Origin: an uncultured Planctomycetota bacterium
Lineage (GTDB): Bacteria; Planctomycetota; Planctomycetia; Gemmatales; Gemmataceae
NCBI GenBank assembly: GCA_963783095.1
Contig: CAWAMR010000018.1
Location: 9,920-73,919 of the forward strand
Length of the DNA: 64,000 nt
Direction of reading: 5' to 3'
This document shows positions 5,632 to 33,119 of the stretch, one piece after another. The notes beneath the pieces are model-generated. The model was given only the letters and a program-made list of their open reading frames with translations, did no database searches and was not told where the DNA came from. A program made the translations under genes and the position numbers. How positions within the stretch are numbered: the first letter of the stretch is position 1; every line of letters begins with the position of its first letter.

Positions 5632-6544
5632 ATGGATCCATTTGCAGCGCTGGTTCCTCCCCTCTTGACGGCTGACCTTCCAGGCATCGGCGGACAAATC
5701 AAGGCCCAGCCCGAAGATTTCGAGGTCGAGGAGATACCGGCTTACGAGCCGGGCGGCAGCGGCGATCATCTCTTTTTGTGGATCGAAAAGCGCGATATGG
5801 GGCGGAATTCTTTAGCCGGCAGATCGTGCGCGACTGGGTATCGCGCCCGGCGACGTGGGCATGGCGGGGTTGAAAGATCGTCATGCCATCACCCGGCAAT
5901 ATGTTTCCGTGCCGGCATCTGCGGAAGAGAAACTTTCGCAATTGGAAGGCGATGGGATTCGCCTTCTTCGACATGCCCGACACAACAATAAACTTCGACC
6001 CGGCCATTTACGCGGCAATCTTTTCCGCATCTTGATCCGAGACGTCGATCCAGCGCTGGCTCCGAATCTGGAAGCAATCCTTTCTCGCATCGAACAATTC
6101 GGGCTTCCCAATTTTTATGGCGACCAGCGTTTCGGCAAGGACGGTGAAACCGCCCACCTGGGAATGGCCCTTCTCAAGGGCGAGGGGAAGCCGATCCGAG
6201 CGCCCTTTCTGCGAAAACTCTCATTGTCGGCGGCGCAATCTCTGTTGTTCAATGCCTATCTCGCACAGCGCATGAAAGATGGTTTGATGCGAACGGTGTT
6301 GCCGGGAGATGTAATGGCCAAATGGCCGGCAGGAGGGATGTTCACTGCTGAGGATGTCGAAGTGGAGCAGGTGCGCGTCGATGTGCGTGAAACCGTCCCT
6401 GCGGGACCGATGTTTGGTCGAAAGACATTCCCATCAAAAGGAGTTGCCGCCGAGCGAGAAGCGAAAATTCTCGAAGACGCAGGGTTGACGAAGCGATCGT
6501 TTCGACGGCTTTGGAAAACTGCTGATGGGAACCCGACGACATAA
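5632..6544 (+). CDS. truD: tRNA pseudouridine(13) synthase TruD; single apparent +1 frameshift near 5825-5830
   Basis: [31 protein letters not shown] in ORF 5632, then [28 protein letters not shown] in ORF 5855 in another frame. Together these match the conserved TruD N-terminus including the catalytic-Asp region GLKDRHA. Confidence 0.8.
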
Positions 6545-7084: not shown

Positions 7085-7732
7085 ATGCAGGTTCCTCAGC
7101 TCTGGATCGTTGCTGGTCCGAATGGCGCAGGCAAAACGACTTGTGTGCAAAAAGAGCCAATTTCGCAAATTCTGCCCAGTGTTACTTTTCTCAATCCCGA
7201 TAATTTGACCTTGGAAAAACTGGTTGCAAGGGGATATTCTGGATTCGCCGATGCTCCTGTCGATATCCAAACCAGCTTGTTTTTTGAATCTGCGGATGAG
7301 GTTTTCGCTCGACTAACGGACGCATTATCCCAAAATCAGTCAGTAGGCGTTGAAACGGTTCTCAGCAGCGACAAGTATCGTCCACTGGTTGAGTTGGTCG
7401 AGGAAAAAGCCGGATTTGTCGGACTCATCTATATCACCTTGACATCTCCTGCAATTGCTCAGCAGCGCGTAGCCCAACGGGTCCGACGTGGTGGACATGG
7501 GGTTCCCGATGACAAGATCGAGAAGCGATTCTTTCGGTCGATCGAGAATTTGACCTGGTTCGCAAGTCGTGCAACGGCGTTCTGGGTAATAGACAATTCG
7601 GATTCTGATCCGAACAATCCTCCTCAGCTGATTGCGTTCGGCAAACGTGGAGTTCTCCATTTTCTCGATCTTCAAGCAAATCCCGCAATACAGTCGGCAT
7701 TCGCGATGTTTCCTCGCCATGAGCCGAGTTGA
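7085..7732 (+). CDS. Zeta-toxin family P-loop kinase (PezT/zeta-like)
   Basis: Walker A IVAGPNGAGKTT and the zeta signature ...RVRRGGHGVPDDKIEKRF... Confidence 0.75.
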   Translation: MQVPQLWIVAGPNGAGKTTCVQKEPISQILPSVTFLNPDNLTLEKLVARGYSGFADAPVDIQTSLFFESADEVFARLTDALSQNQSVGVETVLSSDKYRPLVELVEEKAGFVGLIYITLTSPAIAQQRVAQRVRRGGHGVPDDKIEKRFFRSIENLTWFASRATAFWVIDNSDSDPNNPPQLIAFGKRGVLHFLDLQANPAIQSAFAMFPRHEPS

Positions 7733-8529
7733 GTCTGAACCACGAAGCCACCAATTTATGGGACACCTTTAGAAACTACTTTTGCGGCATCAAACGTCCA
7801 ATCACTCGCCGAGCCGTTGCCGGCGTTGCCTGGCGAGTATATTTGCATCAATCGCCCCTCGATTATGCACATTATAATAGATTGGTGCAAGAACAACCGA
7901 TTTTTGTGGACGTTCTCTTGGCAAGAAGGCTGTCGTACGAAATGTGGCATGGGCAATTGTCATCGCCTCCGCGGAATCACAAGATGAAATTCACCGAATC
8001 CGACATCCAAACTCGCTTTGAAAAAGCACGCGACGAAGCGATGGAGTTGCTTTCCAGGCTGGAGGTAGCCAACGGCCGTAAACCAGAAAAACTGAGAGGA
8101 TTAACTGGCTGGATTTATGAGCAGACCATCCGCAGTTGCTTGGAAGAAGAATTGGAAATCCTGGGGATTGCACCCGAGATCAGTGAGCAGGTGCGTTTGG
8201 GCAAGACAGGGCGCATCACCCTTGATCTGGTCGTTGGTCAAGTTGTAATCGAAATCAAATATGGCGGTTTCATTGGCTCAGCGGATCCAGAAAAATATCG
8301 AAAATACAGGGAACAGAGAACCGAATGTTACAACTTGCTACAAGTTTTTCAGCAGTCAGAGCCGCGACCGTTAGTAGGAAGCGATGTGGCCGTGAACAAA
8401 ACGCTACAACTTGCTACAGATTTTCAGGTTGCTCAAAAACCGGGAAATGCAAACGAACAATCTGGTGAACAAAATATTACAATTGGATCAGCGTTACAGA
8501 AACCAACCGTGTGGAAGTCGTTTTCCTGA
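7729..8529 (+). CDS. Hypothetical protein, third gene of the zeta operon (start uncertain)
   Basis: ORF starts with a TTG overlapping the zeta stop (TTGA), but an internal ATG at MKFTESDIQ is also possible. No family recognised. Contains a 23 nt internal direct repeat. Confidence 0.4.
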   Translation: MSLNHEATNLWDTFRNYFCGIKRPITRRAVAGVAWRVYLHQSPLDYAHYNRLVQEQPIFVDVLLARRLSYEMWHGQLSSPPRNHKMKFTESDIQTRFEKARDEAMELLSRLEVANGRKPEKLRGLTGWIYEQTIRSCLEEELEILGIAPEISEQVRLGKTGRITLDLVVGQVVIEIKYGGFIGSADPEKYRKYREQRTECYNLLQVFQQSEPRPLVGSDVAVNKTLQLATDFQVAQKPGNANEQSGEQNITIGSALQKPTVWKSFS

Positions 8530-11876: not shown

Positions 11877-13105
11877 ATGCAAAATCGCCGCGATTTTTTG
11901 AAGAATACCAGCCTGGTTGGGATGGGAACGGTCATCCCGACATTCCTGGCGAAGACAGCACTCGCAGCGCCCAGTGCTTCCGCAACAGGGGCCAAGGATA
12001 CCATCCTCCTCGTCGTTCAGTTGACGGGCGGCAACGATGGCCTCAACACCGTCATCCCCTACAAGGATGATCATTACTATTCCTATCGCCCGACGATTCG
12101 CATCCCGAAAGACCGAGTCCGCAAGATAAACGATTCGTTCGGACTGCACCCATCCCTGGAAGGGCTGGCGGGATTGCTCGAAGACAAGGCTTTGTGTGTG
12201 GTGCAGGGGGTAGGTTATCCCAATCCCAGCCAGTCGCACTTCCGCTCCATGGACATCTGGCAAGCGGCCAGTACCGCCGAAACCCTGAACGAGGGCTGGG
12301 TTGGCAAGGCGCTCAAATCTCTCAAATCCCCAGCCTTCCATATCGCCACCGCCAACGAAGCGGCACCTCTCGCATTGACTGGTGCGCCGATTCGCGTTCC
12401 GTCGATCACCTCGATCGAAGACTTTCAGCTAAAGATGACGGCAGCAACGGCGGCAGACAAAAAGGATCAGAAGTCGTTGATTCAGGGAGCGGTCAAGAAC
12501 AGCAGTCAATCCGGGCTTCTCGATTTCGTTGCCAAGACAGCGCTGAATACTTATGCCAGCAGCGAAAAGTTGCAGGAGATCGGCAAGAATTATCAGGCCA
12601 AGTCTCCTTACCCTCAAGGCAACTTGCTCGCCAACCGTCTCAAACTGTGCGCACAACTGATCGATTCGGGGATCGGTGCGCGAATCTTTTACGTTTCGAT
12701 CGATGGGTTCGACACTCATGCCAATCAAGGTGGTCCAACCGGTGCCCATGCGAACTTGCTCACGCAGGTATCCGGCGCGATCACCGCGTTTTACAAAGAC
12801 CTGGCGGCACGCGGCCACAAAGATCGGCTCCTGGTGATGACGTTCTCCGAGTTCGGTCGGCGCGCCAAAGAAAACGGCAGCAAGGGAACCGATCACGGCA
12901 GCGGCGCTCCGATGCTGCTCGTTGGGGGCAAAGTGAAGGCCGGGATCGTCGGCGACATCCCGACTTGACCAAATTAGAGATGGGCAATCTCAAGCATGCC
13001 ATCGATTTCCGTCAGGTATATGCAGCGGTCCTCGATCAGTGGCTTGGGGTCAACAGCAAGGAAGTCCTGGGAGGGGAATACCAACACGTAGGGATTCTTG
13101 CATAG
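11877..13105 (+). CDS. DUF1501 domain protein (Tat signal); apparent 1 nt deletion near 12950
   Basis: MQNRRDFLKNTSLVGMGT... with GGNDGLNTV, DGFDTHANQ and MTFSEFGRR. The C-terminus ...DHPDLTKLEMGNLKHAIDFRQVYAAVLDQWLG is recovered in the overlapping frame (ORF 12194..13105). Confidence 0.85.
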
Positions 13106-13292
13106 TACCCCCAACGGTTGCAACTGAGACTCATTGGACCCAAGTTCATTCCGGAACTTTGGGTCCAGCTTTTTTCCTCGTTCAGCATTTTTGAAGGTAC
13201 GAACGATGAACTTTGGTGGGAATGAATTGATGTAAGATAGGCCGATCCGTAGAATGCGAGAGAACGCCATCGACAAAGAAGGTATCTGAATT

Positions 13293-13378
13293 GGAGAGGT
13301 GGCAGAGCGGTTGAATGCGTCGGTCTCGAAAACCGATATACCGCAAGGATATCGGGGGTTCGAATCCCCCCCTCTCCG
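13293..13378 (+). tRNA. tRNA-Ser (anticodon CGA), class II with long variable arm; no encoded CCA
   Basis: GGAGAGG acceptor stem pairing with CCTCTCC; D-arm GCAGAGCGGTTGAATGC; anticodon loop CTCGAAA; long variable arm; T-arm GGGGGTTCGAATCCCCC. Confidence 0.85.
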
Positions 13379-13500
13379 TTTTCATTTCATGTCATTTGAT
13401 GTAAATTATTGCAAATTAAATACTTACATCTCAAGTTTTCTCACTTATGAACCCTCCTGGTGCACGCTTGGTGCACATACCGTGCACAGGAGTGTGTTTC

Positions 13501-14850
13501 ATGAGGTCTCGTCGAAGAGGCTCACCGAAGCGATTTCGCATTGGACGAGTCTCGGTTTACCCTCACCACGGAGCATGGTGGGTTTATTATCGCGATGCCG
13601 GCCAACCCGTGCGTCAAAAAGTCGCACTGGAGCACAAGGATGCCGAACAGATTGCCGCTCAAATCAATAGCCAATTGGCGTCCGGTGCCCCGCTACTTCT
13701 CTCATTCAGTCCCACGACGGTTGCCCACTTGCGAGAATCTTTTCTCGGGCATCATGAGTTCGTCCTGAAATCTTCTGTGGCGACCATCCAGCGCTATCGA
13801 GCCGCAACGCAACATCTAGAAGCCTTCACATTACGGGACACAAAATCACCGCGGGTCCACGAAGTTTGCGCCGAAAACTTCGTCCGTTATCTGCGTGAGA
13901 TTCAAGTCGCTCCCAATGGTCATCAGAATACCAAGCGGCGAAACCTTCGCGACAAGGGGATTCAGTTCATTCCAGAAACCTGCCGTGCGATGTACGGATT
14001 CGCGGCAAGGCGACGGCATCTTCCACCGTATATGGGAAACCCGTTCGCAACATTGCCTCTCGACCGGCTCAAGATCGAAGACTCCAAGCCAATCTTCCTG
14101 TTTAATGCCGAGAGCGAACTCGCTTTTCTTCGTCGAGCCGATGTCTGGGGATTCCCCATCCATTTCACTCTTGCCAAGACCGGCATGCGAAGCGGAGAAC
14201 TCTGCCATCTGCTGATCGAAGAAGTTGACCTCGAAGGTGGTTGGCTGCACGTTCGTAACAAGACCTCGCTTGGCTGGCGAATCAAGACTGGGAATGAAAG
14301 GGCCATCCCGCTTCTGGGGGAATTGGTTGCTCTTCTACGGGTCGTCATTGCTAATCGGAAGGCGGGTCCGGTCTTTTCGCCAGCGGTCGCCGTCATCTCC
14401 CGGGCGTCACACTCAATCGCGCCGCTTGATTTTTTCAAAAACACTTTTCCTGAAGGTCCCACTGCGCGCGCCTTGGTTCGCCAAGCAAATTTCGCCACGG
14501 ACTTTGATCCATTTTCCCGTGAAAAAAGCCTGAACAGAACGCCACACAAGATTCGCTGGACTAACACACCCACTGCGCGCCTTGGTTCGCCAAGCAAATT
14601 TCGCCACGGACTTTTGCCGATTTTGCCCACGAAAACCAGTGAACATACCGCCACACGACATTCGCTGGACCAACACACCCGGCACACTTATCAACGATCT
14701 TGTACAGGATGCTCTATTTACTCCGCTTTCGCGCCACACTGGGCCGCACCGGATCCAGGACTCGGCTCACCTTGTTTTTCTGAAGGGTCTTTACCAGATG
14801 CGCACCAGCCGCTCTTGAGTTCCAGTTCCCGTTCCCGTTCCTCCGCATAG
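13501..14850 (+). pseudogene. Phage-type tyrosine integrase, C-terminally truncated/degenerate
   Basis: N-terminal arm-type region (VYPHHGAWWVYYRD) and the catalytic-Arg box (TLAKTGMRSGELCHL) are present. The HxxR...Y box II is missing, and the sequence after ~14385 is non-protein-like and repetitive. Confidence 0.65.
14458..14690. repeat. Two tandem degenerate ~115 bp repeats inside the integrase 3' remnant
   Basis: cccactgcgcgc(gc)cttggttcgccaagcaaatttcgccacggactt ... cgccacac.attcgctgga..aacacaccc occurs twice consecutively. Confidence 0.6.
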
Positions 14851-15780
14851 AGCGGCATCATCGTGTAGAACTGTACGACGCGTCCATCGTTGAGCGTCGC
14901 CGTCGGAATATCGGACATTTCTAGAAACAAGCCCATGCAACTGAGTTGGGTATTGGCTGCGAACGGCTGCGGCGGCTCGTCATTGGCAATGATCGTGACC
15001 GGCGCTCCCAGCCAGGTCTTGTTCTGGTGCGGATACAGGGCGATTCGACGCATCCATTCAATCGGCCAAAACAATTCGGGGTTGCCCAGCGATGCTTCAT
15101 CCAGCGGCCATTTCTTCCCGGGCGGAAGCTGCAGCACCAGTTCGGCGAACTGAAACTCTTCTTTGCCTTTCGGGACGGTCATGGGCTTGTCGCACATCCC
15201 GGTCGTGAAAAGCGTGTTGTAGGCCCTCTTGCGCGTGGAGGGCACGAAGTGAATGGCAATATCCGGATCCGTTGGCACGATGGATCGTAGTGCCAGCGTC
15301 TGGGCGCGCCGACGCGCCAGAAACATGTTCGAGAATTGCCTCACGCGAACGAACGAGCGGCTTGTCCGACGCCCACCAGGGTTCGGTATAACCGGAAGGC
15401 AGAACAGCACCCTTGGAAGCCAAATACTTGTAAATCTCTGGATGGCCAAGCGCGTTCGATAAAGCATTCATCCCTGCCCATTCGGCATTCACATCGGCAC
15501 CGTGCTCAACTAACAGCTTGACAATATCAACAAAACCGTGACTCGCAGCAGTTGAAAGAGCAAAATTACGGACGGCACCATCTACTGTGCAATTGGAGTC
15601 TGCGCCTTGTTCCAGCAGCCACCGGACGACAACTACATGACCTCCAAGTGAAGCGCTGTAAATCGGAGTTTCTGGACTCTCTGAGGGATTTTGAGGTCGG
15701 GGTGCGTTTACACTCAATCCCATGCTCACCAGCCTTTGAACAGTGGCTAGCATCCCTTTTTCGCCGCCATGTGAAGCCAA
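14718..15780 (-). CDS. Ankyrin-repeat + SUFU (suppressor-of-fused)-domain protein; putative immunity protein; apparent frameshift near 15310-15320
   Basis: ORF 15097..15780 carries ANK repeats (GADSNCTVDGAVRNFALSTAASHGFVDIVKLLVEHGADVN). ORF 14718..15467, in another frame, carries a bacterial SUFU-like core (HFVPSTRKRAYNTLFTTGMCDKPM...YPHQNKTWLG...NDEPPQPFAANTQL...MPLYAEERERELEL). The junction falls in a GC-rich run. Confidence 0.65.
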
Positions 15781-15907
15781 GTTTGATTCCCCACATCACG
15801 ATGTAGCAAATCGGGGTGCATGCTTAGTAGCCGCTGAATTTCGTCCGCGTCATCGCGATTCATTGCCCCACTTATTGTGTTTAGCAAGACATCTGTTTCA
15901 TCTAACG

Positions 15908-16867
15908 TCATGGTGATTTGAACTCTCCTTTTGCGAATCGGTCACCAAGATCCTTGAGCTTATTTATGATGTCTATCTTGTTTTTGGGAGTAGCCTTTAA
16001 TTCCTTGTAAACAGCTAACGCGTATTTCTTGGTATGGCTCCAATTCGGTGCCCACATAAGATTCTCAGGCCCATTTATTGGATCGATTTTGACATCCTTC
16101 AGGATTTGCTGGCTTTCTTGTACCGGGGTCGCCGACCCATCCGTTACACGATCGTATGTCGCCGACGGGCCTTTCCGCATGACGATATGGTGAGCGTGAA
16201 TCGTGACGTCATGATTGGTTTTTTTGGCATTGTTCAGGTAGCCTTGAATCGCAAGATCCGGAGTCGGCACGGATTGGCCTTGAAAGTATTGATGGCCCAG
16301 TGCGTCGCCGCCGTTATCTTTTTCGTATTTTTGCAGGAGCGCTTTGAATTTCGCCTCATCGGGGTCCTTGGGCTTCAGCAGGCCCTCAAGGAGTTCAACG
16401 AGATTGATTCCTTCTTTGGCAAGCTTCGGGTTTGCCGCCTCGAATTTCTGGTCGATGACGTAGCCTCGAACATCCTTGAGGCGTTCGTGCGGCTTTTGCA
16501 TCCCTTCAATGAGCTTGGCAAGTTGAAGGTGAATCGTGCTTTCCAGTTCCTTGAGCAGTTTCGCGCGGTTTTCCTGCTTCTGCTTTTTCTGCTCCGGCGT
16601 CCGTCCGCCCGGCTGGCTCCCCGCGACCTTGGCGAGCTTGTCGTAGGCATCCTTGATTGTTTTCTTGGCCGCGTCGAGTGATTTTCCTGTCAGTCGCGCG
16701 TTGACGCTCGCGACATAGATTTCAATTTCATCCTTGTCGTTGACCTCCACCCATAGTTCGTGTGTCCCTTCATATTCAAACGTCCGTGTTTTGCCCAGCC
16801 GGTTCGGGCGGTCGTTAAACAGTTTCCCAAGGCGGCCAAGGGTCGCCCCTACGATCTTGTTGATCAA
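15908..16867 (-). CDS. Toxin-like protein with C-terminal AHH-family (HNH/EndoVII-fold) nuclease domain; TTG start
   Basis: C-terminal ...TIHAHHIVMRKGP...ENLMWAPNWSHTKKYALAVYKEL matches the AHH motif pattern (AHH..P ... N..W.P..H...Y..V). Helical N-terminal region. Sits directly upstream of the ANK-SUFU gene on the same strand. Confidence 0.65.
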   Translation of the reverse strand: MINKIVGATLGRLGKLFNDRPNRLGKTRTFEYEGTHELWVEVNDKDEIEIYVASVNARLTGKSLDAAKKTIKDAYDKLAKVAGSQPGGRTPEQKKQKQENRAKLLKELESTIHLQLAKLIEGMQKPHERLKDVRGYVIDQKFEAANPKLAKEGINLVELLEGLLKPKDPDEAKFKALLQKYEKDNGGDALGHQYFQGQSVPTPDLAIQGYLNNAKKTNHDVTIHAHHIVMRKGPSATYDRVTDGSATPVQESQQILKDVKIDPINGPENLMWAPNWSHTKKYALAVYKELKATPKNKIDIINKLKDLGDRFAKGEFKSP

Positions 16868-16939
16868 GTCTTCGACAGGCTTTTTGACTTTGCTAAGAAG
16901 GTAGTTGTAACTCGATCATCCACTCAAGAACTCATCGCT

Positions 16940-16975
16940 GGTGCACAAGTGGTGCACAAGTGGTGCACAAGAAAG
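16940..16975. repeat. Three tandem copies of GTGGTGCACAA near the island's right end; putative recombinase-binding iterons
   Basis: gctggtgcacaagtggtgcacaagtggtgcacaag. The related ctggtgcacgcttggtgcacataccgtgcacagg occurs at 13448-13490 next to the integrase start. Confidence 0.55.
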
Positions 16976-17110
16976 TCAAGCTGGGGGCAAGGTTCTGATA
17001 GTGGAGGTTCGTGGAAGAATGATGAAAAAGGTGTTTTTTCCGAGGTTTTGTGCATCAGATGGGGTTCGCGAGTGAGAAAACAAGGCATGACGGAATAATT
17101 TCTCGGAGAG

Positions 17111-17125
17111 TCCCCCCTCTCCGTT
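17111..17125. repeat. Putative attR: direct repeat of the tRNA-Ser 3' end
   Basis: tcccccctctccgtt vs tRNA 3' atccccccctctccgtt (13362-13380). Confidence 0.5.
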
Positions 17126-17246: not shown

Positions 17247-18502
17247 TTACGGCACAGCATTTTGACGTGTCGGCTCGCCGTGGCTGATGACCTGGGTGAC
17301 GCCGTCGAGGCTGGTGACGTAGATTCGGCCGGCGGCGCCGACCGGCGACGCATAGACGTTCCTGATGGCGTCCAAGCGCACGGGATCGCCCAGGTCTTTC
17401 CCCGTCTTGGCATCGATGCGCACGAGGACGCCCTGGTAGTGCTGCAGGTTATAAATCGTGCCGTCGTAAAGCAGCGGCGATGGAACGTAGGGCGTTCCCC
17501 GGTGGCGAGACCAGACGACCTGGTTGGTCCCCGTGATGTCGCCTTTGGCGCCGTCGAGTTGGATTGCCAGCATGGCGCGCGTGTCGTAGCTGCTGCCGGC
17601 GTAGACGAACCCGTTCGCCGCCACCGGCGACGCCACGATGTTGGACGACAGCCCACCGCACTCCCAGACGATCGCGCCGTTGGCCAAGTCGTAGGCGCGC
17701 ATGCGTTTCGTGCCCGGGACGATGACCTGGGCCTTGCCGTTGTGCTCGACCACAATCGGCGTCGCCCACGAAGTGTCCTCGGCGCGAGCCACGCGCCAGC
17801 GTTCCTTGCCGGTGCGTTTGTCGAGGGCGACGACAAACGATTTCTCTTCGTGGTCCCAGTTGATGATGAGCGTGTCGCCGTGAAGGGCCGGGGAACTGCC
17901 TTCGCCGTGGCCGTGCTTGGAGTGCATCTCGCCGAGGTCTTTTTTCCAGAGCAGCTTACCGGCTACTGTCCAGGCAGTACAGGCCGTACGAGCCGAAAAA
18001 CGCGAAGACATGCTCGCCGTCGGTGACGGGCGATGCCGAGGCGAGGCTGCCGGTGACATGACCGGCTTCGTGCGGCGTCGCCTTGTTGCAGCGTTTGCTG
18101 CCAGAGAATCTTGCCGGTGCCCGGCTGACGGCCAGCACTGCGAATTCGTGGTTGCGGGTCAGTGTCAAGTTGTCGTGAGCACCTGGACGAACGAAGCGGG
18201 GCTTCACCGGATCGCCGTAAGGGATCGCCGTGGTCAGGTAGAGGCGGTCGCCCCAAACGATCGGCGTGGAATGCCCCTTGCCGGGCAGCGCCGTCTTCCA
18301 GCGGATGTTCTTGTTCTTCGTTCCATTCGATCGGCGGCTGGGCATTCGGTGCCACGCCGGTTGCTAGCGGTCCGCGCCATTGCGCCCAGGAGTCCGGCGC
18401 TTCGACCTTGCCGCGCTCGGCATTTACCGCTCCGGCCAGCAAGCAGGTTGTCGCCAGATTGCCAATAATTGACATCATGACGATGCCCCCTTGGTTTGCC
18501 AC
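17247..18502 (-). CDS. Secreted PQQ-like beta-propeller repeat protein (BamB-like fold); at least two apparent frameshifts
   Basis: Signal peptide plus WAQWRGP start (ORF 17963..18502); propeller blades in ORFs 17956..18345 and 17247..18059 (PIVWGDRLYL, FVYAGSSYD, GRIYVTSLDG). Confidence 0.7.
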
Positions 18503-23800: not shown

Positions 23801-24313
23801 TCAAGAGAAAGAGAGGAACGCGTCAACTATCAACGGTGGGTTCTTCAGGCTCTCCCGCTGTTTCTTGGCCGCTGAGCACACAAGGTTTGGGGCCAGATCG
23901 ATCAGGCACATTACAAACTCGTCCGGATGCTGTACGTAGATGCCGTACTTGGCAAGCACGTCCTTCCGGAAGTCCGACAAGTTACTGGTTACGATTACAT
24001 CTGCACCTGCACGAATTGCGGCAGCCAGGACATGACGATCATCCGGATCAGGGAGAGTAATTGCCTCAATCAGATCTTCGTATCCAGTAACAAGACAATC
24101 CCGGACGTGGGAGTTCATAAGGTCGCGTGTCCGCTCGATCTTTTCTCGGGTGATGTCGGGATAGTCCTTTTGGACATTCCGCATCCACTCTTCATGAATT
24201 GCGTCGGTCCACTTTGCCCTGAATAAGTCGGTCATCGCAAGATACATCAGAAGGCTCCTCAAGGGAGCCGGATACAGGACGCATGCGTCGAAAACAGCAG
24301 TGACGTTACTCAC
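23801..24313 (-). CDS. PIN-domain toxin (VapC-like)
   Basis: AVFDACVLYPAPLRSLLMYLA...DPDDRHVLAAAIRAGADVIVTSNLSDF; its start overlaps the upstream antitoxin gene stop by 4 nt. Confidence 0.75.
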   Translation of the reverse strand: MSNVTAVFDACVLYPAPLRSLLMYLAMTDLFRAKWTDAIHEEWMRNVQKDYPDITREKIERTRDLMNSHVRDCLVTGYEDLIEAITLPDPDDRHVLAAAIRAGADVIVTSNLSDFRKDVLAKYGIYVQHPDEFVMCLIDLAPNLVCSAAKKQRESLKNPPLIVDAFLSFS

Positions 24314-24792
24314 TGTTCGTAACCCATCCCGCCCAATTCCTGGTCATGGGCGGATAATTCTTCAAGAGCGTTGAGCCTATCGGCATCAATCTTCTGTTTG
24401 TAGGTCATCAGATCCTGGAACTGGATGCGGCGATGCGTGCCCACTTTTCGATGCGGGATCAGGCCTTTCTCGACGAGTTCAATCATGAATGGCCTGGAGA
24501 CATTCAAGAGGTCTGCGGCCTCCTGGGTGGTTAGTTCAGCGTGGACAGGTATCAGCGTTACCGCGTTGCCTCGTGCCATTTCGGTCAGGACGTCCGCGAG
24601 CAAACGGAATGCGGCCAGCGGCACTTCGACCGTTTCTTCCGGCTCGCTGTCGGGCTGGATGCGGAGGCGCAGTTTGGGCTTCTTTCGTCCACTTAGAAGT
24701 CTGGTAAGCGTGCGGCTTGATTCTTGGGCGATTTTCGCTTCGGCAGGCGTCGGGGTGACGGTACCTGATCGGCCGATAAGTGCTGCGCTCAT
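24310..24792 (-). CDS. Helix-turn-helix DNA-binding antitoxin partner of the PIN toxin
   Basis: TTQEAADLLNVSRPFMIELVEKGLIPHRKVGTHRRIQFQDL is an excisionase/MerR-like HTH; operonic overlap with the PIN gene. Confidence 0.7.
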   Translation of the reverse strand: MSAALIGRSGTVTPTPAEAKIAQESSRTLTRLLSGRKKPKLRLRIQPDSEPEETVEVPLAAFRLLADVLTEMARGNAVTLIPVHAELTTQEAADLLNVSRPFMIELVEKGLIPHRKVGTHRRIQFQDLMTYKQKIDADRLNALEELSAHDQELGGMGYEQ

Positions 24793-27024: not shown

Positions 27025-28872
27025 CTACTGCATGAAAAAGCTCGTACTTTCTTCTTTCACGATAGGCTGCTTCAATTGATCGCACGACATCTGGACCTTG
27101 AACCGCATATCCCCAGGGATTGTGCCCTTGGCTTTGACTTTGATGACCGCATCGGCCTTCATCGCCAGATTTGGGATCGGGTCGAAGTGCAACGCCTGCC
27201 CGACCGACTTGTAGGGTACCGGCCCTGTTGCAGTACCAGGCACTAATCCTTCCGACGTGATCGCAGTGATGCGAATGTTGGTGCAAGGACAAGTCCCTGT
27301 ATTCACAATTCGGATTTCGTAGGTCGTTTCTTTTCCTACCTCGATCGGATTTTCAAGATTTGCTACTTCGAAGCTCAGGGCCGGGACTCCTTCCGCTGCG
27401 ATAATCGCTTCGGATCGGGCACCGAGCTTCGGGCCGGCCTGAGCCACCGCTCGAACCGCGAGTGAACCAGCACCCGTCGAACGTGTCTTAATGGTGAGAT
27501 TGCGGCGCAGTCCCCGCATCCGCTGGCCCAAAGTTCCAACTCACCGTCCGAGTTGCGGCATCGTAAACGCCCCCGTCACTGGCCGAGACGAAGTCCAACC
27601 CTTCCGGGAAGGCAGTGGCAATCTGGACAGGCTGCGTAGCGCAGGTGCCCGGATTTCCAATCTCCAGTGTAAAGGTCGGCTCTGCCCGCACCATACAGCG
27701 GCGTGGCCCCGTCAACGCCAAGGCAAGTTTGGGCTGATTCAGTTGGATCTCTGCTCTGGCAATCGCCTTTGGCGATCCTTCACATGTTGCGCTCAGGCTG
27801 CAATTATGTGTTCCGGTGGCAATGGCCTGAACCTTGAGGGTGATGGACTGAGTGTCACCCGGTAGAATCCGGGGCAAAGTCGCTTCGATGTCTTTTCCTT
27901 CGGGATGTTTCAGGCCATCACTCAGCGGCGCTTTAATGCTGACCTTGTTTGCATCGCCTGTGCCGGTGTTCATTACCTGAATTTGGATTGGAATCTCATC
28001 TCCAACTTGGCGGCGTTGGGAGCAGTCAAAGTCACGCTCAAGGTCGGTCGAGTGACCTTGACGAGCATATGCGTGTGGGTCGAATAGGAGAGCGATGGGT
28101 TGGTGTTCAAATCGCCTTCCGGATTGGGCCGAACCGTGACCTGGATGCGCTTTTCGTCGTTTGGACCCATTGAGCCGAGCATCCACAGAATTTTTCCGCC
28201 GGCCTGTTCACCGGCCGGCTCGGCACTGATGTATTTTGTGCCCTGAGGCAACTCTTCCTCAACGCGGACATGCGTGACGGCCGCTTGGCCGACGTTCCTC
28301 ACGAGGATTTCGTAAGTAACGGGTAGGCCGTGGCCGACGGTATCCGGTCCTGTAGTTTCAATCGACAGACAAGGCACAATACGATTTCCGGAAGCTGCAT
28401 GGGTTTTCAGCGGCACCGGCCCCGGCAAGGTAGAGCCGGGATGATGGGTGGATTGAAACCGGAGTTCCGATGCCGGTGCTTTCGGAACAGTCCGTGGCTG
28501 GAGTAGTGTAGGTTTTGGCCTATCGGGCAACACGATCGCCGGCTCGCCCGCGGGTGCAATCGGCGATGCGCTGGTTTTGGGTTGGTTCGGGTCGATGACC
28601 GGCAACACGAGACTTGGCGAATCGTTTTTGGGTTGCGGCAAAGGGGCCAATGTTGTTGGCGCAGAAGGTGCCGATGGTATTTCAAGAGGCTCCGGTGTCG
28701 GAATTGCCGGCGTAGAGCTCGAGCCATCCTTCTTGGAGAATGAGTAGGTTGTGGGCTGGACTTGAGGGAGTTTCAAATCAGGTTGCGCGGTAACGATATC
28801 ACCATGGATCAACCCGATGCCGCAAAGACCCGCGATACCCAGCATCAGCGTAAACGCCTGAATTCGTCTCAC
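27025..28872 (-). CDS. Secreted protein with Pro/Thr-rich linker and three DUF11 (conserved repeat) domains; two apparent frameshifts (~27510, ~28180)
   Basis: Signal peptide MRRIQAFTLMLGIAGLCG; repeats ...TYEI.V.N.G.A..T.V.V.D.LP.GL.F... spread across ORFs 27973..28872, 27488..28186 and 27025..27531. Confidence 0.65.
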
Positions 28873-29803: not shown

Positions 29804-31888
29804 ATGCACCGTGAAATCTCACACACCGATGAAGTCTTCGGCGAATCGAGCAATGCCGGGCTGTACTTGCTCACCGCCCTCCTGGCGATTTTGCTTGCTC
29901 TGGATTTGTGGACGCCTCTCGCAAGCTGGCTCACGTCGCTGAATCTCGGCATCGAATGGCCCATCTGGCAGCGTGAGTTCTCGGGTTATCGCTATGCTCT
30001 CATCGCGGCAGTTCTCGGCGGTGCCCGCGTATTGTTCAATTCATTGGAAGCCCTCTTTGACGGCAAGCTTGGTGCCGACCTCGCCATTGCCGTTGCCTGT
30101 ATCGCAGCCATCCTGATCGGTGAGCCTTTGGTCGCTGCGGAGGTGGTCTTCATTGGCTTGATCGGAGAATGTCTCGAAGCGTTCACGTTCGCTCGTTCCC
30201 AGCGCGGCATTCGCAAACTCGTCGAAGTGTTTCCGCGCAAGTGCTGGTTATTGCGCAACGGGCAGGAAATCGCGGTCAACACCGATGAGGTTCGGGTCGG
30301 CGATCGAGTTGTGGTCAAACCGGGCAAGAAAGTCCCCGTCGATGGCGTTGTCGTCGAGGGCCGATCTGCCGTTGACGCTTCACCGCTCACCGGTGAGAGC
30401 TTGCCCATCGATAAGGAGCCGGGTAATGATGTGCTTGCCGGCAGCATCAACCAGTTCGGCTTGATGATCGTTGAGGCGAAGAAGGTTGCGGAGCAAACCG
30501 TCGCGGGCCGGGTGATCGAACTAACCTCGAAGGCGCTCAAGGACAAGGCCCCCATCCAGCGCGGAGGTCGATCGGCTCGCAAGATACTTTCTCCCGGCAG
30601 TGTTGGGGCTGGCATTTCTCAGTTTCTTGATCAATGCGATCTATCTGGCAGGGCCATTTCGACCAGAATCGAGCCGGCTCAACTGGTCCGCTGCCGCCCG
30701 GCTCAGCATGTATCCTACCCTGGGCGTACTCGTCGTTGCCTGCCCATGCGCTCTGGTGCTGGCAACGCCGGCAGCGGTCATTGCTGCGCTCGGCAGGCTT
30801 GCGGGAACCGGTGTGCTCATCAAAGGAGGCAGCGTCCTCGAACGGCTCGCGACGGTGAAGACTTTTGCTTTCGACAAAACCGGAACTTTAACCGAGGGTC
30901 GGCTCGAGCTTGGCGACATCATTCCCGCAGATGGGATTGAAGCGAATGAGGTATTGCGAACCGCTGCACTTGCAGAACAAGGAAGCGAACACCCCATTGG
31001 GCAGTTGCTGATCCACACTGCGCGGGATCGGTCAATCTCCCTGGAGCCCTTGACGGAATTTCAGGCCCATCCGGCGCAGGAATCTCAGCGCTTGTTTCCG
31101 GTCATCATCTTCTCGTCGGTACGCATCAGCTGTTGGAATCCGAAGGTGTCGCGATCCCTGCCGCGATCAGGGACGCCTTGACTCACCTGGATGAATCCGG
31201 GCAAACTTCCCTCGTCGTTGTTCGCGATGGTGTGGTTCTGGGAACGATCGGGATGCGCGACAAGATTCGCCTGGACGCAGCAGACATCGTTGCGGAATTG
31301 CGCAGCGCCGGTGTCACTCGAATGATGTTGTTGACCGGCGATCGCGCTTCGGTTGCCCGCACGGTTGGTGAGCAATTACGGATCGAAGAAGTCCACGGCG
31401 AATTGCTGCCGGCCGACAAGGCAAACTTGATTTCCCAGGGGCAAGCCGCAACCGGCCCCAGCACCGCTTTTGTCGGGGACGGCATCAACGATGCTCCCGC
31501 ACTGGCCGTTGCAACGGTCGGGATCGCCGTGAGCGGTTCGGATATCGCTGCCGAGGCGGGCGATGTGGTCTTGATGGGCGAGCCGCTACGACACCTCCCT
31601 CTATTGCTCCGGCTCTCGCGCGAAACAATGCGCATCATCCGCCAAAACATTGTCTGGTTTGCTTTTGGTGTAAATCTGGTCGGTGTGTTGATCACCGGCA
31701 TTCTCTGGCCGCTGTTCGCCACGTCGCCCGACTGGTACGACAAGTCTCCGCTGTTCGGTGTCATCTATCATCAGGCCGGCTCGTTGCTGGTTTTACTCAA
31801 CTCCATCCGACTACTGGCCTTTGAGCGCCGATCGACGCATGCAGGCTGGCGGCGCTGGACGGACCGATTCGCCGCAATTGACCTGTGG
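29804..31888 (+). CDS. P1B-type heavy-metal-translocating ATPase with no N-terminal metal-binding domain; two apparent frameshifts (~30590, ~31090)
   Basis: TM-first N-terminus; TGESLPIDKEPGN actuator region, CPC in VVACPCALVLATP, DKTGTLT phosphorylation site, GDGINDAPAL. Spread across ORFs 29804..30940, 30600..31181 and 31133... Confidence 0.8.
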
Positions 31889-33119
31889 ATGCAACGAAAC
31901 CTGACGGTCGATAGCGCCTTGCACGAATTGACTCACCGCTGGCGTTGGGCGCTGGGCGGACTGGGAACGCTGGCCCTGATTGCCTGGCTGTCGACGAGCC
32001 TGGTGCAGGTTTCACCCGATCAGGTAGGAGTGTTAAAGCGATTTGGACGAATCGAGGAAATCTTACGGCCGGGGCTTCACATTCGCTGGCCCTGGCCGGT
32101 CGAGATTGTGATGAAACTGGCTCCCGATGAAGTGAAAACAGTAGGGCTTGGGTATCGCTCACCCGAAGAAGAAGAAACGGATGAGGATTTGCCGCGCAAG
32201 CGAGTTATGAAACCGAAAGCAGGTCAGGCACCGCAAGGGGCAACCTGGACCAGCCTGCATGGTGGAACCGAGAGCTTTGCCGAAGAAGCAGTGATGATAA
32301 CCGGCGATGGCAACCTCGTCGAGATTCTTGCGACCGTCGAATACCGAATCGACGACCCGAAACAGTATCTTCTCGCCGCACGGCAACGAAAACCGATACT
32401 GCGTTCGGCAATGGAATCGGTGCTGCGGGAGATGGTCGCGGGCCGGACTTTCGCCGATTTGTTGACGGTCTATCGAGCCGAATTCGAAGCCTCAGCACAG
32501 GCTCATCTCAAGCAACGAATTCGAGAACTGGCACCCGAAGGCTTAGGCATCCATCTCAATGGCTTCATCGTTCACGATCTCCATCCGCCCAGAGCTGTGG
32601 TGGCCGACTATTACGAAGTGGCCCGCGCCATTCAGGCCCGCGATCGGATGATTAACGAGGCGCAAGCCGAGGCGATCCGCAAACGTCGCCGAGCTGAGGA
32701 GGATGCCATTCGACTGGTGAATTCGGCCGGCACCGCGGCGAATGAGCACGTTGGCAGACAGGCGCTGAAACGGCGAAATTCTCGCGCTGCAACAGGCCCG
32801 TCAACAACTCGAACTGGTCGATGAGGCCAACCTGGCAGCGGAATTAAACCTTGCGCTGATAATGGGACAAGACCAAGCCACTGCGGTGAGCGACTATCTG
32901 CTTCGGCGTAAGAGATTGTTGTTGCTCAGGCGATCGATGATCGATTCGCGTCTCGCCTGGGAAGCATTGACGGAAGTTCTCCGCAAGAGAGACAAGATCA
33001 TTCTCGACATCGAAAAGCTACCGGGCCGGCGGCACTTATTTCTGGTCGATCCCGAATGGTTAAAGCCAACGATGCTGGTTCCCCCCGGCCCGCTGCTTCC
33101 CAATAGGGAAAGTAATTAG
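31889..33119 (+). CDS. SPFH/band-7 HflK-like protein, in frame with (no stop after) the ATPase; apparent frameshift near 32765
   Basis: TM helix ALGGLGTLALIAWLSTSLV followed by VSPDQVGVLKRFGRIEEILRPGLHIRWPWPVE...NGFIVHDLHPP...EAQAEAIRKRRRAEEDAI. The C-terminus RLAWEALTEVLRKRDKIILD continues in ORF 32862..33119. ATG at 31889 is a possible independent start. Confidence 0.6.

Follow-up and report, generated by a model that had tools for sequence, protein, structure and literature searches.

The question raised by this locus is how to understand a 319-aa protein that ends in an AHH nuclease domain and is encoded at the edge of a small integrative element, that is, whether it is a toxin cassette, a complete effector, a defence gene or a remnant. 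Based on the results described below, we suggest, with a probability of roughly 60%, that the ORF encodes the toxin of a toxin–immunity cassette of the polymorphic-toxin kind, that this cassette is carried on a tRNA-Ser islet, and that the present copy is solo or 5′-shortened and not self-delivered. The whole stretch of DNA analysed, 64,000 nucleotides (64 kb) in length, is referred to as the window, and its features are collected in Table 1.

Table 1. Coordinates of the islet, of the toxin–immunity cassette and of split genes in the window (positions are those of the whole 64,000-nt stretch).
Feature	Position	Strand	Characteristics
TruD	5855–6544		probably split
DUF1501 gene	11877–13105		split; one base seems to be missing at the junction, which was read to the nucleotide
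Integrative islet	13292–17125		~3.76 kb; toxin–immunity cassette is the sole cargo
tRNA-Ser(CGA)	13292–13379	plus	ARAGORN; Rfam tRNA, 61.8 bits; 3′ end is the integration site
attL core CCCCCCTCTCCGTT	13367–13380	plus	exact 14-nt direct repeat with 17112–17125
Left arm	13457–13491	plus	three GTGCAC(A) repeats, 11-nt spacing; directly upstream of the integrase start
Tyrosine integrase	13501–14850	plus	phrog_1, 2e-17, and partial Pfam Phage_integrase; begins ~120 nt after the tRNA
Putative Ank + SuFu immunity frame	14718–15911	minus	three frames as assembled; Pfam Ank_2, 5e-21, and SUFU, 1.4e-28
Toxin ORF	15908–16867	minus	319 aa; TTG is the first start; ORF listing and upstream translation
Predicted toxin module (residues ~172–319)	15908–16354	minus	lead-in helix with 'GGDALG', then AHH core (HNH/EndoVII, beta-beta-alpha-metal)
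Pre-toxin region (residues 1–171)	16355–16867	minus	lineage-restricted; no known domain
Right arm	16938–16972	plus	three GGTGCACA repeats, 11-nt spacing; ~70 nt upstream of the toxin start
attR core CCCCCCTCTCCGTT	17112–17125	plus	right end of the ~3.76-kb islet
PQQ-propeller gene adjoining the islet	17247–18502		appears split from overlapping ORFs; one of three ORFs matches Pfam
DUF11-repeat protein	27025–28872		split
P-type ATPase	29804–32824		in three frames

The first-pass annotation had described a 319-aa ORF with the motifs HAHHIVM and NLMWAPNWSH, beginning with TTG after an upstream stop. The ORF was confirmed on the minus strand, which that annotation had not stated, both motifs were located in it, and translation of the upstream sequence showed that the TTG at 16867 is indeed the first in-frame ATG, GTG or TTG past the upstream TGA, the 16 sense codons between them containing no start. 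The next possible in-frame start is codon 40 (GTG), and ATG does not occur in frame before codon 123. Upstream of the ORF, stops occur in all three minus-strand frames within ~100 nt, and an out-of-frame ATG lies 46 nt upstream of the TTG. No Shine–Dalgarno-like sequence or other obvious ribosome-binding site was seen ahead of the TTG, which lies within the islet, just ~245 nt from its edge. Given the indel-rich assembly discussed below, the gene could in fact begin elsewhere, and its 5′ end cannot be certified. The NCBI/ENA record holds an identical 319-aa protein on a 356-kb contig. In addition, a 49-aa fragment from the representative library (P0002) is 100% identical to residues 271–319 of the toxin, so at least one further dataset contains the same sequence.

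The C-terminal ~150 residues are predicted to constitute a divergent AHH-clade HNH/EndoVII nuclease whose putative active site is intact. The HAHH motif occupies residues 224–227 (nt 16187–16198) and NLMWAPNWSH occupies residues 269–278. The Pfam AHH model (PF14412) matched residues 211–296 with E = 8.1e-5 and 23.0 bits, narrowly passing the gathering score of 22.3. The same model matched 61 of the 78 aligned relatives (best E = 4.3e-10), and the AHH domain named in the first-pass annotation is supported accordingly. When 1.84 billion representatives were searched exhaustively with phmmer, 92 proteins were retrieved; with few exceptions these aligned only over residues ~220–317, at 40–50% identity. 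In the family alignments A1 and A2, H224 and H227 were invariant, while H226, N269, W272, A273, P274 and H278 were kept in at least 90% of the sequences; the window toxin has every one of these residues. The catalytic motif of Tox-AHH, namely [AG]HH followed by N and H, is represented by H224-A225-H226-H227, N269 and H278. In all relatives the AHH domain forms the end of the protein, with 86–129 residues beyond HAHH. Family conservation begins ~50 residues ahead of HAHH with a helix and a 'G.DALG' motif, and the toxin module was therefore placed at residues ~172–319. Judged by its sequence, the toxin is a member of Tox-AHH, within a divergent sub-clade that barely reaches the Pfam threshold.

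The AlphaFold2 model built with an alignment was good for the C-terminal half of the toxin only. In this model the toxin module had pLDDT > 90 and consisted of a strand (223–227), an insert, a second strand (270–274) and a helix (280–292). Such a strand–strand–helix order would fit a beta-beta-alpha-metal core. The single-sequence model was unusable (pLDDT 41), and searches of PDB sequences with the toxin protein and with the family profile gave no match.

If the module is a toxin tip, homologous AHH tips may be sought on larger proteins in other genomes, as the first-pass annotation had proposed, and they were found there behind PT-HINT, RHS, annexin plus PT-HINT, and PKD/GEVED bodies. PT-HINT was joined to the AHH tip in 13 of the 78 members, and RHS in two or three. 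The large proteins ending in this tip (PT-HINT, RHS and PKD-domain ones) are 900–1857 aa long. They include a 1221-aa protein with annexin repeats and PT-HINT (P0024), a 906-aa PT-HINT protein (P0090), an 1857-aa protein with RHS repeats and LysM (P0083), a 1277-aa protein (P0031) and a 1423-aa PKD/GEVED protein from a Gemmata MAG (locus L004), each with the AHH tip at its end. The presence of one AHH tip on differing N-terminal bodies across genomes is the defining behaviour of a polymorphic-toxin tip.

The toxin gene is directly followed by a candidate cognate immunity gene, as in polymorphic toxin loci. The TGA of the toxin overlaps the ATG of a reading frame for ankyrin (Ank) and SuFu domains (ATGA at 15908–15911). 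A tblastn search with the Ank and SuFu genes of the loci L006, L001 and L004 mapped them onto the window frames at 41–43% identity. Downstream of the gene for the 481-aa AHH protein P0069, two independent metagenome contigs (L006 and L007) have an Ank gene (199 aa) and a distinct SuFu gene (207 aa); in L001 an AHH remnant is followed by an Ank–SuFu fusion, and in L004 the 1423-aa giant AHH toxin is followed by an Ank gene. Imm-ank and Imm-SuFu were listed as partners of Tox-AHH, planctomycetes included, by Zhang et al. 2012 (PMC3482391), where a fusion of Ank to SuFu was noted and solo cassettes of toxin followed by immunity gene were described. By analogy with these families, the Ank and/or SuFu protein is predicted to bind and neutralise the nuclease in the carrier cell.

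The locus L001 (9363–12831) contains a decayed version of this cassette in which, of the toxin, only the AHH core from HAHH onward is left, fused behind an unrelated ORF. Its Ank–SuFu fusion is frameshifted and is followed by a possible transposase ORF, as judged by eye. The contig is labelled Alcaligenaceae and bears planctomycete-type genes.

As assembled, the Ank–SuFu frame of the window is broken twice. Read directly, the shifts lie near 15757 (an A5G3 run, −1) and near 15300 (+1). A −1 shift at a homopolymer in the Ank part was observed at two independent loci, namely at the A5G3 run, which is an A_AAG_GGA-like heptamer, and at a T5 run in L001 (~10557). Coincidence, decay and slippage are all conceivable causes. 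For the A5G3 run of the Ank gene, programmed −1 frameshifting was considered and not adopted, since the window also has frameshifts in its core genes.

Indeed, several conserved genes outside the islet are split (Table 1), so the breaks in the Ank–SuFu frame are poor evidence of decay. Two junctions, the A5G3 run in Ank and that in DUF1501, were resolved to the base, and each resembles a single missing base. The assembly looks indel-rich, and a genome full of pseudogenes is less probable; calls of pseudogenes and of start codons are therefore unsafe here. The window ORFs that were scanned show typical planctomycete content (DUF1501, DUF1800 and DUF1559), and no secretion genes were found among them.

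For residues 1–170, in the pre-toxin region ahead of the toxin module, no known or trafficking domain was found in Pfam, NCBIfam, PHROGs, PADLOC or PDB sequences, which bears out the first-pass statement that no secretion or trafficking domain is recognisable, and the window toxin contains no signal peptide or known loading motif. A weak PHROG tape-measure match of the toxin (E = 0.031) was put down to coiled-coil composition. The N-terminal region had also been described as only helical. In the AlphaFold2 model with an alignment it consists of an amphipathic helix, a three-stranded sheet (27–54, low confidence), a helical hairpin (62–123, pLDDT 72–82) and short helices; the hairpin agrees with that description and the small low-confidence sheet does not.

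Among 1.8 billion representatives, P0069 was the only relative of the pre-toxin region. It is 26% identical to the window toxin over window residues 20–315 (pairwise E = 7e-15). The global alignment reaches back to window residue 2 and leaves ~138 residues of P0069 without a counterpart. In other words, the window toxin from residue 2–20 on aligns to P0069 from ~139–166 on, and P0069 carries ~140 extra N-terminal residues. The comparison of the toxin N-terminus rests on this one relative at 26% identity, and the 140 extra residues could be accessory in P0069 and need not have been lost by the window copy. A profile of the window N-terminus and P0069 recovered only its two inputs from 5.8 billion clusters, and a word-index homologue search with the whole toxin protein found only itself.

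It was also considered whether the junction of the 1423-aa L004 protein is continued in the first ~55 residues of the toxin and the 9 codons ahead of the TTG, and whether this might belong to a DUF4157/eCIS-type core. This idea was rejected as unproven, since the match of window residues 1–55 to the pre-toxin junction of L004 was weak (pairwise E = 0.006), that of P0069 to L004 was not significant, and no family could be collected, the L004 pre-toxin region finding nothing as a word-index query.

The cassette is the only cargo of an integrative islet. As in tRNA islands, the element is bounded by a repeat of the tRNA 3′ end, and an integrase adjoins the tRNA. Only two 14/14 matches to the core repeat CCCCCCTCTCCGTT occur in the 64-kb window, where chance alone would give 0.04, and just beyond attR the G+C content changes from ~0.52 to ~0.65. 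The octamer GGTGCACA has four matches in the window, all of them in one or other islet end. Near both ends there is also an inverted repeat of 20 nt (13435–13454 and 17062–17081). As the right-arm repeats are so close to the toxin start (Table 1), they fall inside the presumed toxin promoter region. No Rfam families besides the tRNA were found in the islet.

The integrase has been kept to about residue 315 and is degenerate thereafter, according to the alignment to intact homologues from L016 and L045. Its HxxR...GH...Y catalytic part is not in frame, and an intact catalytic R...HxxR...Y series was not found in it. The 3′ region of the gene contains a 109-nt tandem duplication (14466–14573 and 14575–14680), and since 109 is not divisible by 3, this breaks the integrase frame. 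The two copies agree fully over their first 40 nt and at ~80% of positions thereafter; both encode an HxxR-like 'PH(K/D)IRWTNTP' segment. The sequence suggests that the islet is probably no longer mobile and is best called a decayed islet.

A metagenome scan for the triplet pattern found loci with homologous integrases among many unrelated tandem repeats. In four of these loci (L016, L102, L029 and L085), the GGTGCACA triplet lies just upstream of a homologous integrase adjoining tRNA-Ser. The identity of the window integrase to its homologues ranges from 49 to 68%, being 68% for L016 and L102 and 52% for L029. With these shared triplets and the homologous integrases beside tRNA-Ser, the window element belongs to an apparent tRNA-Ser islet family. 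Cargo varies among the islet relatives, L016 carrying a large serine recombinase of 770 aa. A scan of the metagenomes for an unoccupied tRNA-Ser site gave no match. In the four loci (L016, 3858–5415; L029, 8544–9364; L102 and L085), the tRNA-Ser has a GGA or GCT anticodon.

Taken together, the sequence data show an AHH module, its active-site residues intact, and a coupled Ank–SuFu frame on a decayed tRNA-Ser islet. From what is known of the family, the AHH nuclease would degrade DNA on reaching a cytoplasm, and the Ank and/or SuFu protein would neutralise it in the carrier cell. Less firmly, the window copy is more likely a solo or 5′-shortened cassette than an autonomously delivered effector. 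This reading relies on the lack of a signal peptide and of a trafficking domain, on the TTG at the islet edge and on the absence of ~140 residues of P0069. The stops in all upstream frames speak for a shortened form as well, and neither a larger partner nor a parent gene for the toxin was found within the 64-kb window; elsewhere in the genome there could be genes for a parent toxin or for delivery machinery. Since the toxin has no trafficking domain of the polymorphic-toxin type, it qualifies as a solo cassette only and not as a full-length polymorphic toxin. The name orphan toxin cassette given in the first-pass annotation is thus apt in so far as a trafficking body is absent; the toxin is not isolated, however, being accompanied by the Ank–SuFu frame and the islet. 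The evidence that weighs against this reading is that the 960-nt ORF is intact, has all catalytic residues and is coupled to the immunity frame by the ATGA overlap. Such an intact, coupled ORF would be compatible both with a silent cassette and with a functional toxin that is expressed. Two roles seem likeliest for the cassette today: preserving the linked immunity genes, which would protect against the same toxin from relatives, and providing a toxin tip that can move together with the matching immunity.

It is possible, although we consider it doubtful, that the protein is a complete self-contained antibacterial effector, in which residues 1–170 form a new trafficking or entry domain and the delivery machine is encoded elsewhere. 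The intact ORF and active site would be expected of such an effector, and the conservation with P0069 from residue 20 onward across the pre-toxin part argues for selection there. P0069 is itself a stand-alone protein of 481 aa between housekeeping genes and not the tip of a giant protein, and the post-HINT fragment of the PT-HINT relatives is comparable in size and helical make-up. A parallel is provided by the two-part CdiA-CT toxins, in which an N-terminal entry sub-domain precedes the nuclease. However, the protein has no signal peptide or known loading motif, the window ORFs that were scanned include no secretion genes, the toxin has no counterpart to the first ~140 residues of P0069, and no clear ribosome-binding site precedes the TTG start. 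Moreover, the pre-toxin region has a single relative in 1.8 billion representatives and is therefore not a widespread trafficking module. In a still broader and improbable form of this idea, residues 1–170 may be an unrecognised delivery or cell-entry module, AHH nucleases of ~300–480 aa may act as stand-alone effectors of Planctomycetota, and tRNA-Ser islets with GGTGCACA triplets may be their dedicated vehicles. If this were true, tiny tRNA-Ser islets would move complete toxin–immunity units between genomes.

The two remaining explanations start from the islet. Small islands commonly bear stabilising or defence cargo, and the cassette might serve the islet inside the cell, for addiction or defence, its nuclease never being exported. 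Much as in toxin–antitoxin or abortive-infection systems, the toxin, being more stable, would kill cells from which the islet has been lost, or phage infection would free it from inhibition by Ank/SuFu. In favour of this, the mobile element has no cargo besides the cassette, the toxin bears no export signal, and its promoter region overlaps the arm-type repeats of the integrase. We nevertheless regard this as unlikely, because the toxin precedes the immunity gene, the Ank and SuFu families are those of secreted polymorphic toxins (PMC3482391), the AHH tip is joined elsewhere to the PT-HINT and RHS export architectures, no PADLOC match was found for the toxin, and the P0069 cassette is not on a recognisable mobile element. 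It is more unlikely still that the whole islet, including the toxin, is a dead and unexpressed remnant whose ORF is open by chance or owing to recent decay. The integrase without its catalytic part and with the 109-nt duplication, the Ank–SuFu frame broken twice as assembled, and the related locus L001, a clearly decayed AHH remnant with a frameshifted Ank–SuFu, could all be read in this way. On the other hand, conserved core genes (P-type ATPase, DUF1501 and PQQ propeller) are frameshifted as well, so the breaks are more likely to be assembly errors than decay, and a 960-nt open frame with all conserved catalytic residues is unlikely in a long-dead gene.

The toxin–immunity cassette, in its solo or 5′-shortened form, can be compared with several known systems. 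It resembles Tox-AHH (PF14412; Zhang et al. 2011 NAR, PMC3113570; Zhang et al. 2012 Biol Direct, PMC3482391) in the predicted HNH/EndoVII fold, in [AG]HH with downstream N and H, in the nuclease at the extreme C-terminus, in the immunity gene after the toxin and in the Ank and SuFu partners. It differs from Tox-AHH at large in that the sub-clade of the window toxin has a lead-in helix 'W..YL..G.DALG' ~50 residues ahead of HAHH, and in that the 319-aa window copy has no T5SS, T6SS, T7SS, RHS or HINT part. Like the orphan cassettes of CDI and Rhs systems, it is a short toxin unit without a trafficking body, its cognate immunity gene lies directly downstream, and the tip occurs on large proteins elsewhere. 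The classical orphans of these systems are arrayed directly behind the full-length gene and still share a homologous stretch with this parent, whereas the window cassette has no parent gene nearby (in the 64-kb window), a junction in common with a full-length toxin gene could not be demonstrated for it, and it is located on its own integrase islet. The three-part order of toxin, Ank and SuFu is shared with the P0069 cassette, in which, unlike the window, Ank and SuFu are separate genes, and the P0069 contig has no integrase or tRNA. As for the element, it is similar to small tRNA-targeting integrative islands, with the att duplication of a tRNA 3′ end, the integrase by the tRNA, the arm-type repeats and the varying cargo, but it is unusually small (an integrase and one cassette) and its integrase appears inactivated.

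AHH toxins with Ank/SuFu immunity and solo cassettes were already catalogued in 2012, planctomycetes included (PMC3482391), and the locus does not overturn the current understanding. Its value lies in annotation and in a warning about calls made on a frameshifted assembly. What the analysis adds is a well-delimited case of an AHH/Ank–SuFu unit carried, with no other cargo, by a very small tRNA-Ser element in a planctomycete-like genome. It also delineates a divergent AHH sub-clade that shares a conserved lead-in helix, and it draws attention to the pre-toxin region of ~170 residues, for which one relative is known.

Two further pairs of overlapping ORFs were observed in the window. A Zeta-toxin/AAA_33-like kinase ORF (7085–7732) overlaps by 4 nt a 266-aa ORF (7729–8529) that has no Pfam match, and this pair (7085–8529) may be another toxin–antitoxin-like pair. 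On the minus strand, a PIN_3 ORF (23801–24313) overlaps an HTH_17 ORF (24310–24792), which is the typical arrangement of a PIN toxin–antitoxin system.
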